A stretch of 64,000 bases of DNA from contig CAVOVB010000001.1 of NCBI GenBank assembly GCA_963699755.1, positions 1,760,105 to 1,824,104 on the forward strand, given 5' to 3'. This document shows positions 29,843 to 39,038 of the stretch, piece after piece (within the stretch, counting starts at the first letter, position 1; every line of letters begins with the position of its first letter). Source of the stretch: an uncultured delta proteobacterium (GTDB lineage Bacteria > Myxococcota_A > Polyangia > Polyangiales > Houyiibacteriaceae). The notes beneath the pieces were generated by a model, which was given only the letters and a program-made list of their open reading frames with translations, searched no databases and had not been told where the DNA came from. The position numbers and the translations under genes are program-made.

Positions 29843-30502
29843 ATGCGATATCTACTTCACATTGGGCTCTTTGTATTGGCGCTCACGGCCGTAACCCAGG
29901 CCAGTGCGGACGACGACAGCGACTCCCGTCGCGGAAAGAAAGTCATCGTCACCTATGATGACGCTCCCCGCCAGGTTCGGCCCGTTCGCACGAGCTTCGA
30001 ACCGTCACGGGCTGTTTACGACCAGCGAAGGACGGTTCACCACACACCCCAGGCCACCCACTTCGCGCGTCGTGCCTACTCCGATCAGCGGGAGGACCTC
30101 GAACAGATCGTTCGGATCAGCGAACGTTGGCAGCAGGCCACCGCCCGTAGAAACGTGGACGCACAATGGAAGGTCAATCGTCGGCTCGACGCCTGGCTCG
30201 AGGGCGAGATTCGCGAATCCGTTCGCGATCCCGGTAACCAACGCTACTCGCAACGGGTTCGTCTGCTCCGTAACGAGCTTCTATCGCTCGAACGAAGCCG
30301 TTATCGCGGGCGTGGCCACTACGAGCGCGGTTCCCACGGTCGCGGTCACGGCGGTCGTGGTCACGGCGGTCGTGGTCACGGCGGCTATTTCGTGAAGAAG
30401 GCGAGCATTCTGAACGAGCTGGTGCAGTTGTCCGAGCGACAGGTGCAACGGGCTGAAGCAAACCTTCGCTACCCCCAGCGGCTTTCGTTCGCCCGTCGCT
30501 GA
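29843..30502 (+). CDS. secreted hypothetical protein with His/Gly/Arg tandem repeat
   Basis: The internal ATG at 29843 gives the signal peptide MRYLLHIGLFVLALTAVTQASA. Arg-rich helical body; GRGHG GRGHG GRGHG is encoded by a 15-bp tandem repeat near 30338-30385. Confidence 0.5.
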   Translation: MRYLLHIGLFVLALTAVTQASADDDSDSRRGKKVIVTYDDAPRQVRPVRTSFEPSRAVYDQRRTVHHTPQATHFARRAYSDQREDLEQIVRISERWQQATARRNVDAQWKVNRRLDAWLEGEIRESVRDPGNQRYSQRVRLLRNELLSLERSRYRGRGHYERGSHGRGHGGRGHGGRGHGGYFVKKASILNELVQLSERQVQRAEANLRYPQRLSFARR

Positions 30503-36010: not shown

Positions 36011-36211
36011 ATGAACATCGACAAATTGGTTTTTCGAGTTGCAGGGATCATGGTCATAGCCGGCGTGATTCTCGCCTACAGTCACCACATCGCCTGGCTC
36101 ATTCTGCCGGCATTCGTCGGCCTGAACATGTTTCAGGCCTCGTTTACCGGCTTCTGCCCGATGGCGACGATTGCCAAGCGTTTCGGGATGAACGAAGGCA
36201 AAGCGTTCTAA
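36011..36211 (+). CDS. DUF2892 (YgaP-like) small membrane protein
   Basis: 66 aa with two TM helices and FVGLNMFQASFTGFCPMATI, the hallmark of DUF2892. Confidence 0.7.
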   Translation: MNIDKLVFRVAGIMVIAGVILAYSHHIAWLILPAFVGLNMFQASFTGFCPMATIAKRFGMNEGKAF

Positions 36212-36232: not shown

Positions 36233-38155
36233 CTAGTGTCGGCCGTCCGCGTGACAGCTGAGGCAGAAATTCGCGGGCGCGGCGCCCGCCGGATAGTTGT
36301 TCACCTCACGGTGCTTCGCGTCCATCCGGGAACGCGTGTGCTCGCCGTCGTGGCAGCCGACACAGTCGGCGTTCTCACCGCCCACCGGCGAGCCGAGCGC
36401 CGCGTTGTGGCAAGATGCGCAGTCGTTTCGGTATCTCGAGTGCGCTCCTGATTGGATCCGGAAAGCGTTCTCGGGGTGGGTCCCACCGGAGGCGGGAGTC
36501 CAGGCCGCCGTCGTGTGGCAACTCAGGCAGTCGCCGGTGGCGGGGTGCGTTGGCGTCGCGGGGCGCTGCGATTCGTGACAGTCATAGCAGCGCGTTGGCT
36601 CCGGAACATGTGCGAACGTTGCCGGAGTCCAGGTCGGATACGAGTGATGACAGCTGGCACACTCGGGGTCGTACGTTTGCGCATGAAATGGGGTGTTCGA
36701 CCTGGGCTCGTTTGCGTGACAGCCAATGCAAGCGGCCGGAAGCGGCGTGTGCGGCGCGACTGGATCGGCGAGTGCCCAGTCGTTCACGACGTGACAGCCG
36801 GCACAGTCCCCAAGCCCCGCGGCCGATTGATGCGTTGGCGTCGCGGGTCTCAGATCACTGTGGCACGCGTTGCAGGCGTTCGGGATCGGCGCGTGCAAGA
36901 AATCAGCCGGCGTCCAACCCGGGTATTGATGGTGACAGCGGGCGCACTCGGGCTGGGCGATCTGGGTGTGGAAGATCGTAGTCTGTCGCGGCTCGTTTTG
37001 GTGACAGGACACGCAAGACGCCGGAAGCGGCGTGTGGAGCGCGACCGGGTCGGCTGTAGCCCAGCTGGTGTGACGATGTGGCAGGAGGCGCAATCGCCCT
37101 GGCTCGCCGCGGTTTGGTGCGTGGCCGTGTTGGGTCTCTGATCGGAGTGACAGTCTACGCAGGTGCCAGGCACTGGCGCGTGGAGGAAATCAGCCGGTGT
37201 CCAACCTGGATATTCATGATGGCAGCTGGCGCACTCGGCGTCGAAGACCTGGGCGTGGAAGATCGTCGGTTGTCGCGGCTCGCTTTGGTGACACGTCAGG
37301 CAGGATGCCGGGAGCGGTGCGTGAAGCGTGGCCGCGTCGGTGACGGCCCAGTCGTCCACGACGTGGCAGCGGGCACAGTCCGCGAGGCCCGCGGCCGATT
37401 GATGCGTTGGCGTCGCGGGTCGCAGATCGCTGTGGCATGCGTTGCAGGCGCTGGGCACTGGCGCGTGTAGAAAGTCTGCTGGTGTCCAACCCGGGTAGCT
37501 CCGGTGGCAGCTGGCGCATTCGGCCTCGAACACCTGAGTGTGGAAGATGTTCTGCGGTTGCGGGTCGTCTTGGTGACAGGTCAGGCAGGATGCCGGAAGT
37601 GGCGTGTGCAGCTCCGCCGGGTCGGTGAGGGTCCAGTCGGTGACGATATGACACGAGGCGCAGTCGCCCAGTCCTTGCGGGGATTGGTGCGTGGGCGTGT
37701 CAGGTCTTCCATCCGCGTGACAGTCTAGGCAGGTGCGCGGCACCGGCGCGTGGAGGAAGTTCGCCTGTGTCCAATCCGGATAGCTCCGGTGACAGCTGGC
37801 GCACTCGGTCTCGACAATTTGCGGCATGGAAGCTCGTCTGTGGTCGCGTCTCGTTTTCGTGACACGTCACGCACGATGCCGGAAGCGGCGTATGAATTGT
37901 GGTGGAGACCGCGGGGATCCACTCGCGTTCGGTGTGGCAATCCTGGCATGTGCTCGGGAGGGAGTCGTGCGGTGGGTTGATCGCTGCCTTGAGGTCCGCC
38001 GCGTGACACGTGACGCATTCGGCTTGACGGACCGTTCGCCGGCTCATGCTCGATGCTGCCGGCCCCACTGCATCGCCACGCCCATCGATACGGCTGGCGC
38101 TGATTGCGACGGCCGCCGCAATGTGACCAGACAGGCGACGGCAGTTAACCCTCAT
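36233..38155 (-). pseudogene. 25-haem c-type cytochrome with five tandem four-haem modules, frame-disrupted twice
   Basis: Track ORFs 37700..38155, 36850..37827 and 36233..37093 join into a single 1923-nt reading unit with 3+11+11 CxxCH motifs. Breaks lie near 37823-37825 (..TSFH / AQIVETECASCH) and near 37064-37069 (..CASCHIVT / SWATADPVALH). The first and last segments share a frame. Confidence 0.78.
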
Positions 38156-38313
38156 GGCGTATATGATAAGCCGATCAATTCACCCTGTCAGGTTAATTCA
38201 GCGGCCGCGTGAGACCGCAGCCTAGAGGCCAAAATAGCCTCAAAAACCTTTTCTTTCCAGGATGTTAGTAGCCTTGCCAAACCGGGGGACCCGCTACCGG
38301 GGTCCGATCTAGG

Positions 38314-39038
38314 ATGCTACCTTTCGAGGAATCCATGATCCTTCCCGGCCGAGCGGCAATACGAGCTCTGATCTTCGGAGCGTCGGGCGCGGTGCTGCTC
38401 AGCGGAGCGTGCACCGGCGGGACGCAGGACCACGATCGTCTGCAGGTTCGAGGCGCCGATTGCATCGTCTGTCATTCCGACGATGTTCAGCATGCGCTTG
38501 AACCCACCTCATGAAGGGCTTCCCGGACACCTGCGGAACCTGCCACGGTCAAGAAGCCTGGTCGCCTGCCGCGTTCACGCACACCTGGCCGCTCGTCGGC
38601 GCGCACGAGATGCTCGCCTGCAGCGCATGCCACGTCGGGGATCCACCGGTCTACCAAGGCACGCCCACACTCTGCGTCGGCTGCCATCAGGACGATTACG
38701 ACAACAGCCCCTTCCCAGGTCACGCCGACTTCCCAACGACCTGCGAGAACTGCCACACGACGACCGCCTGGACGCCCGCGGTTGGGGGTACACACCCCGA
38801 GAACGCGTTCCCGATTCAAAATGGCGCACACTCTCCCTATCGCGACGATTGCGTGTCCTGCCACAACCCGGATCTTGGCTCACCCGTGAATGGAGAAAAC
38901 GCGGACTGCGTCGGCTGTCACGACGGCGAGCACACGCGAGCCTCGATGGATCCCAAGCATCGCGAAGAGCCCGATTATCCACAGGGTGCGGCGCCGCCCA
39001 ACTTCTGCTTGGATTGTCACGCGGACGGTCGCAACTAG
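38314..39038 (+). pseudogene. octahaem c-type cytochrome lipoprotein, frame-disrupted twice
   Basis: Signal peptide plus lipobox (AVLLSGAC) and CIVCH in ORF 38314..38514. LNPPHEGLP appears in the frame of ORF 38483. DTCGTCH... and six more CxxCH are in ORF 38511..39038. Breaks lie near 38496-38500 and at the CCC run near 38522-38525. The junction sequence parallels AINPPHDSLPSTCQDCH in the divergent 25-haem gene. Confidence 0.72.

Follow-up and report, generated by a model that had tools for sequence, protein, structure and literature searches.

The 64,000-nucleotide stretch of DNA analyzed here (hereafter the window), taken from a Polyangiales genome of the Houyiibacteriaceae (GCA_963699755.1, contig CAVOVB010000001.1, positions 1,760,105 to 1,824,104), carries on its minus strand at 36233-38155 a single gene for a multihaem cytochrome, which as assembled is split into three long open reading frames (ORFs) in two frames. 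Our best overall explanation, which we regard as reasonably likely, is that this gene encodes a modular, lipid-anchored cytochrome wire that extends an adjoining electron conduit resembling the porin-cytochrome clusters (PCC) of the PCC3 type, that the wire changes its length by whole modules, and that the breaks in the frame are errors of the assembly. Long single-chain haem wires are thought to move electrons across the cell envelope; to our knowledge, very few such proteins have been characterized, and there is no structure of one as long as this.

The three ORFs (37700-38155, 36850-37827, and 36233-37093) hold 3, 11, and 11 CxxCH motifs in their own frames, and when the breaks are read through, the resulting 25 motifs follow one another at spacings of 23/25/23/24 residues five times over and then 20/36/19/33. 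The layout is that of a two-haem N-terminal cap (CVTCH, CQDCH; 37898-38042), five four-haem modules of 95 amino acids (285 bp) beginning at the third CxxCH (37612-37897, 37327-37611, 37040-37326, 36755-37039, and 36479-36754 for modules 1-5), and a three-haem C-terminal cap (HPENAF...NFCLSCHADGRH; 36236-36478), which is the arrangement that an earlier reading, made from the DNA alone (the sequence-only reading), had described for the frame-repaired gene. The exact 95-residue period that it had claimed is borne out by this spacing as well as at the DNA level, where Tandem Repeats Finder reports a period of 285 bp with 4.1 copies and 73% matches at 36735-37896, and where the autocorrelation of bases reaches 0.68 at lag 285 compared with 0.24 at lags 284 and 286. 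Its observation that blocks of DNA are reused stood in part: two copies of ccggcatcctgcctgac-tgtcaccaa lie exactly 285 nt from each other (37596 and 37311), whereas gagtgcgccagctgccac has no exact match in the gene, where just GAGTGCGCCAGCTGTCAC is found, once. Pairwise identity among modules 1-4 is 64-76% at the protein level and 71-80% at the DNA level, module 5 matches the others at 51-58%, and exact repeats within the gene reach at most 34 nt.

Each module consists in turn of two diverged two-haem units of 47 and 48 amino acids with the pattern HxPxPxxCxxCH-x10-H-x8-CxxCH-x4-W, and the N-terminal cap is one further such unit, giving eleven alternating 47/48-residue units plus the C-terminal cap in all. 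With six extra bases dropped, the product has 638 amino acids, 25 CxxCH motifs, and only three methionines. A signal peptide with a lipobox (...SVSMGVA-C-SG; 38070-38155) is seen once the three N-terminal extra bases are dropped and becomes readable on removal of those at ~38092 and ~38073; it is nearly identical to that of the closest relative, and a signal peptide and lipobox cysteine ([LIVM]xG[AGV]GC) are present in all orthologs.

In 55 two-module segments aligned from the window gene and its orthologs, the eight CxxCH motifs and eight further histidines are invariant, so that every haem has its own candidate distal histidine. This pattern fits bis-His ligation, and because each haem site has an invariant extra histidine, all 25 haems would probably be bis-His, low-spin electron carriers. 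Pfam PF09699 (Paired_CXXCH_1) matches the protein in four stretches with 109.6 bits (cut-off 20.6) and TIGR01905 matches it with 33.7 bits (cut-off 25.2); judged by these models, we class the protein as a multihaem c-type cytochrome with doubled-CXXCH units, the elementary two-haem unit being a known one. A phmmer search with a 250-residue piece of the window protein against 1.84 billion representative sequences returned 1455 matches at E < 1e-3, among them giant Thr/Ser-rich cytochromes of up to 3592 amino acids in which as many as 20 stretches match at 30-38% identity; the module is widespread.

When a two-module profile was compared with the sequences of the PDB, the best match was MtrA (6R2Q chain A; E = 1e-6, the alignment covering 166 residues and keeping eight CxxCH in register), followed by NrfB, Hmc, and STC, while phmmer with the intact ortholog P0002 (see below) found no match in the PDB. 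The structure 6R2Q is that of MtrCAB, in which MtrA holds ten bis-His haems over 80 Å (PMC7198977). It is plausible that the haems of the present protein are likewise stacked as one continuous MtrA-like chain, which for 25 haems would be ~20 nm long if scaled from MtrA (10 haems/80 Å). The protein can be called MtrA-like in build, and it is not a member of the MtrA/DmsE family, since its score against the family model is below the cut-off (see below).

Such dense, regularly spaced haems had been likened in the sequence-only reading to nanowire-like or long-range electron-transfer cytochromes. A long-range wire would be consistent with the bis-His pattern, the match to MtrA, and the PCC3-like neighbors, but nothing supports a polymerizing filament of the OmcS type: the comparison with PDB sequences, even with E allowed to reach 1, returned none of the filament chains OmcS, OmcE, and OmcZ, and identity with an OmcS-type filament was ruled out because no solved filament subunit is found among its matches. 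A polymer of cytochrome c7 domains (GSU1996 type) was also ruled out, as the units carry two haems and the super-modules four at 23/25/23/24, and with NF043011, the NCBIfam model of cytochrome c7, the protein reaches 19.4 bits, short of the cut-off of 120.

A scan of species-representative genomes identified eleven close orthologs in metagenome-assembled genomes (MAGs) of Polyangiales/Myxococcales. In nine of the eleven (L006-L013 and L016), in which the 3' end of the gene is not cut by a contig end, it is a single uninterrupted ORF with six modules and 29 CxxCH at the same spacing, and the best tblastn segments of these nine are 69-84% identical to the window. The closest, L006, is a MAG that is 97.3% identical to the window over 11.6 kb of flank, and 97-98% identical in nucleotides over the 3' 1.4 kb of the gene. 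Two metagenome proteins with the same spacing are shorter, namely P0001 (four modules, 21 CxxCH) and P0002 (also L001; three modules, 17 CxxCH), the latter being found on six independent contigs. Five modules and 25 haems are atypical for this clade, in which six modules and 29 haems are the norm.

In a maximum-likelihood tree of 66 modules, grouping is mainly by position in the gene and not by genome. We take this grouping to mean that six modules are the ancestral state of the clade and that whole modules have been lost, positions 1, 3, 4, 5, and 6 being retained in the window, positions 1, 2, 3, and 6 in P0001, and positions 3, 5, and 6 in P0002. Module 4 of the window has the same amino acids as module 5 of L006, and the terminal module, which is three amino acids shorter than the others, is 76-85% identical among the window, P0001, and P0002. 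A global alignment with L006 places a 285-nt gap in the window at 37602/37603, so that the window gene equals the L006 gene minus its module 2, and the breakpoint (junction 37602-37611, between modules 1 and 2 of the window) falls within conserved module-boundary sequence. The change in copy number that had been predicted from the DNA repeats is therefore real in the family, with six, four, and three modules in orthologs and one module of L006 absent from the window, and it would be brought about by recombination in the conserved module-boundary sequence, adding or removing whole four-haem modules.

The contigs of five sequencing runs (X1, X2, X3, X32, and X7) diverge from the window at 37608 and enter sequence like the end of L006 module 2. 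It might be argued that the count of five modules is itself an assembly error, and that the true gene has six modules and 29 haems, one 285-bp module having been dropped in assembly or consensus. The closest relative has six modules, every public contig that reaches 37608 runs into module-2-like sequence, and many other probable consensus errors fall within the same 5 kb, all of which would agree with a dropped module. However, collapse by the assembler is unlikely given modules that are 71-80% identical in DNA with no exact repeat longer than 34 nt, and on the latter ground we rejected repeat collapse by a short-read assembler as a candidate cause. Moreover, genes with three or four modules occur naturally on contigs independent of one another (six for P0002), and a breakpoint in conserved boundary sequence is what real recombination would be expected to leave. 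We therefore think a module dropped in assembly somewhat unlikely.

The caps are shared beyond this family of module arrays. The N-terminal cap, a doubled-CXXCH unit, is common to a family of 379-residue proteins and to the neighboring 8-haem paralog, and the C-terminal cap to that divergent paralog (at 38511-39038) and to hundreds of longer cytochromes. In some relatives (e.g., L007, 8614-9858), the partner of the 29-haem gene is a gene on the same strand for a 14-haem protein of ~379 amino acids, in which three copies of a ~72-residue three-haem unit stand between the shared caps. Since this 14-haem protein has identical cap types, the caps are common to two different kinds of repeat array.

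The frame of the window gene is broken at more sites than the two that split its three long ORFs. Six extra bases lie at five sites (~38092, 38073, 38035-38038, 37822, and 37069-37072). The three sites nearest the N-terminus together add three bases, which obscures the lipobox cysteine; the base at 37822 lies in module 1 and the two at 37069-37072 (AC) in module 3. In contigs of four sediment metagenomes that match the window at 95-99% identity, two bases are missing at ~37068, one at 37822, and one each at ~38036, 38073, and 38092, as well as one each at ~38496 and 38519 in the divergent neighboring gene, and four further runs agree wherever their contigs cover the break sites (eight short-read runs in total, searched as Logan contigs). 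Nine more extra bases of the window lie between 41549 and 42147. In the comparison with L006, all uncompensated small indels are surplus bases of the window (16 events, 17 bases), which lie within 37069-42147 and are accompanied by no small deletions, whereas the 10.5-kb left flank has no small indel events and the 3.3-kb right flank none that changes the frame. Most of the inserted bases interrupt runs of G or C instead of extending them (e.g., GGGGGG to GGGCGGG and GCC-CAA to GCCGCAA), and they are absent from L006, from every relative, and from the eight short-read runs.

The dN/dS ratio of the gene relative to L006 is 0.19 (dS 0.097), compared with 0.18 for the flanking MMPL gene and 0.085 for the flavoprotein gene, and it therefore gives no sign of relaxed selection. 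At 62% GC, a GC3 frame plot was too noisy to show how densely frameshifts occur along the window. The 16 insertions are matched by not a single small deletion, substitutional decay is absent, and other data sets lend the insertions no support; we therefore think it quite likely that the extra bases are consensus errors of the assembly rather than biology. Programmed frameshifting was ruled out, since no relative has the breaks, their sign and context vary, and neighboring genes are broken too. The broken frame and the count of 25 haems are, on our reading, properties of the assembly and not of the gene family, and the locus illustrates that a 5-kb patch of insertion-only errors can look like gene decay. 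A difference of another kind lies at 30358, where 15 extra bases of the window relative to L006 are one more 15-bp repeat unit of the GRGHG type in a gene for a secreted His/Gly-rich protein.

The gene order around the cytochrome is conserved in relatives and runs through an ArsR regulator, an MMPL pump, a LolA-like protein, a 539-residue protein, a YgaP-like protein of 66 amino acids, the cytochrome under study, a divergent 8-haem lipoprotein paralog, a membrane-anchored 2x[4Fe-4S] flavoprotein, a 307-residue membrane protein, a 20-haem cytochrome, a 10-haem cytochrome, and a secreted protein of 558 amino acids. The 8-haem paralog (38314-39038, plus strand) is divergently transcribed, has the same caps, and is broken in the window by the extra bases at ~38496 and ~38519, its intact counterpart in L001 having 243 amino acids; its middle unit differs and is of the type HxWPLxGAH...PPVYxGTP. 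The rest of the cluster occupies 39035-43415 and in the window comprises the flavoprotein, the membrane protein, the 10-haem cytochrome, and the 558-residue protein, the genes of the last two carrying the nine extra bases at 41549-42147. Two gaps interrupt it: 503 nt are missing at 40098/40099, so that the flavoprotein is without its 2x[4Fe-4S] head and the membrane protein without its start, and 1507 nt are missing at 40601/40602, where the second WX3HX13H motif of the membrane protein and the entire 20-haem cytochrome are lost. Both gaps are filled in L006 and in all population contigs.

In its intact form, the 307-residue membrane protein has a TGxxG motif between two WX3HX13H motifs; L001 (307 amino acids) and L006 have both of the latter together with TGIAG, and the window copy keeps the first WX3HX13H alone. 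Two WX3HX13H motifs with (S/T)GxxG are the signature of the inner-membrane protein of the proposed PCC3/PCC4 porin-cytochrome clusters (He et al. 2017, PMC5566968). For PCC3, this protein is described as having ~300 amino acids, five transmembrane helices, two WX3HX13H, and SGxxG, the periplasmic multihaem cytochrome as having a median of 21 haems, and the cytochromes as haem-bearing repeats suggesting a wire (PMC5566968). The 20-haem protein missing from the window has 545 amino acids in L001 and was detected by tblastn in L008 and L009, and the 558-residue secreted protein, which ends in ...TWRPSW, adjoins the 10-haem gene. The studied gene, which is repeat-rich and encodes a lipid-anchored product, stands outside this four-gene core and has its own divergent promoter region. 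No gene for a porin of the MtrB/PioB type adjoins it, its immediate neighbors encoding the YgaP-like protein and the 8-haem paralog, and the sole porin candidate lies ~5 kb off and is without a family match. The identification of the 558-residue protein as a porin is putative, and for this reason and because the cytochrome gene lies outside the four-gene core, we call the neighboring cluster PCC3-like.

The region also varies within populations. High-depth contigs of X1-X3 leave the window at 36209-36210, just past the stop codon of the YgaP-like gene, and enter unrelated sequence; many co-occurring strains are therefore without the cytochrome gene or have other content at this place. At 46163-46768, contigs of X2 and X4 skip ~580-604 nt around a TetR gene, suggesting a population variant without that stretch. 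In L016, the 29-haem gene is retained together with a part of the flavoprotein gene and is directly followed by a TetR/hydrolase operon, while the membrane protein, both the 20-haem and the 10-haem cytochrome, and the putative porin appear to be absent.

The cluster of the window might instead be a real and recently inactivated set of pseudogenes, in which the extra bases, the missing module, and the gaps of 503 and 1507 nt are true mutations and the conduit has been lost. Neither the 16 small indel events nor the two gaps extend beyond 37069-42147, the flanks showing no frame-changing ones relative to L006; the gaps are clean-edged and cost the cluster essential parts, namely the ferredoxin head, the second haem-b motif, and the 20-haem cytochrome in full; and the relative L016 is likewise without part of the cluster. 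On the other hand, with a dN/dS of 0.19 as in the flanks and every CxxCH and distal histidine intact, any inactivation would have to be very recent. Sixteen small insertions with zero small deletions also argue against decay, as do the inserted bases themselves, which mostly break runs, unlike those expected of replication slippage, and among the nine runs examined there is no contig with an extra base or bridging the window junctions. Inactivation of the cluster is thus, in our judgment, unlikely.

Under the preferred reading of an intact wire gene with a misassembled frame, we hypothesize that the product is an exported, lipid-anchored c-type cytochrome composed nearly entirely of tandem two-haem doubled-CXXCH units, which most likely extends the adjoining PCC3-like trans-envelope electron conduit and would serve to move electrons either across the periplasm or along the surface of the cell. 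The other parts of this conduit would be the membrane-anchored Fe-S flavoprotein, the membrane protein, which probably binds two haems b, the 20-haem and 10-haem cytochromes, and the secreted putative porin. Alternatively, the protein might store or buffer electrons in the periplasm in the manner of a capacitor, the role that has been proposed for the GSU1996-type polymers of Geobacter, in which case the number of modules would set charge capacity and not reach. Its many predicted bis-His haems with no catalytic-looking site, the varying number of modules between retained caps, and the transcription of the gene apart from the string encoding the membrane protein, the 20-haem and 10-haem cytochromes, and the porin would all suit a store, whereas a lipid anchor and conserved N- and C-terminal caps suggest fixed docking partners, and the adjacency to the PCC3-like cluster is kept in most relatives. 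Storage and conduit roles can also coexist. We regard a role as a store in place of a conduit as distinctly unlikely.

Tentatively, and with a probability that we put well below even, the module array may act as a length dial, in which the number of modules tunes the distance or the charge that is bridged, provided that the variants are functional and selected. If so, versions with 29, 25, 21, and 17 haems would have arisen within one Polyangiales clade through independent loss of positionally orthologous modules between fixed caps, the candidate pressures being envelope width, mineral contact distance, and partner spacing, with tuning by recombination at module boundaries. Such a natural allelic series would make the relation of wire length to function directly testable, and the series of 17, 21, 25, and 29 haems with identical caps would be convenient for relating wire length to electron transfer, folding, and maturation.

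Several results weigh against the explanation that we favor. The clustering of the extra bases within 5 kb and their insertion-only pattern lack an explanation under assembly error, and the extra bases and the missing module could be real in the strain. The NCBIfam DmsE/MtrA model TIGR03508 gives 117.9 bits, under its cut-off of 192.2. AlphaFold2 yielded no usable structure for the full six-module ortholog (18 sequences; pLDDT 33), and for two modules (55 stacked module pairs) it gave a pLDDT of 57 and a pTM of 0.35, with nothing found by Foldseek in the PDB. The gene is not in the canonical slot of the PCC3 extracellular cytochrome, the 558-residue putative porin has no match in Pfam or the PDB, and the gene was found in none of the RNA runs searched.

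Among known systems, the nearest in sequence are the nine 29-haem Polyangiales/Myxococcales orthologs, which share the caps, spacing, lipobox, and neighborhood of the window gene and differ in having one module more and an uninterrupted frame. The best solved relative is MtrA of the Shewanella MtrCAB complex, with which the protein shares bis-His haems (here predicted), little secondary structure, and ~25-30 residues per haem, and both look as if they were assembled by duplicating smaller haem units (PMC7198977). However, the present protein has 25-29 haems instead of 10, is probably lipid-anchored, shows a regular A/B super-repeat, falls below the cut-off of the family, and is encoded without an adjacent MtrB-type porin gene.

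In their overall plan, the monomeric 'nanowire' cytochromes GSU1996, GSU0592, and GSU2210 of Geobacter sulfurreducens are similar, being single polypeptides of concatenated small haem modules for which an elongated haem chain has been proposed. In the c7-type domains of these Geobacter polymers, one haem per domain is His-Met ligated. By contrast, the distal ligands of the present protein are predicted to be all histidines, with three methionines in the whole protein, and its repeats are two-haem doubled-CXXCH units in four-haem super-modules instead of c7-type three-haem domains. Growth and pruning by modules is an established mode of evolution of multihaem cytochromes (PMC11492766). This kind of wire is itself already known, and what is new here is the positional orthology of the modules with repeated loss of whole modules, together with the evidence that the frame breaks are non-biological.

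Finally, the PCC3 clusters (He et al. 2017) resemble the neighborhood of the gene in a membrane protein of ~300 amino acids with two WX3HX13H and (S/T)GxxG, a ~20-haem cytochrome, and a secreted protein of ~560 amino acids, and their repeat-rich cytochromes find a parallel in the giant Thr/Ser-rich proteins of up to 3592 amino acids that carry a related module at 30-38% identity. Unlike PCC3, which is itself a bioinformatic proposal and was described in Proteobacteria, the present cluster is found in Polyangiales, and the studied gene lies beyond the flavoprotein and the 8-haem paralog, outside the four-gene core that it probably serves to extend.

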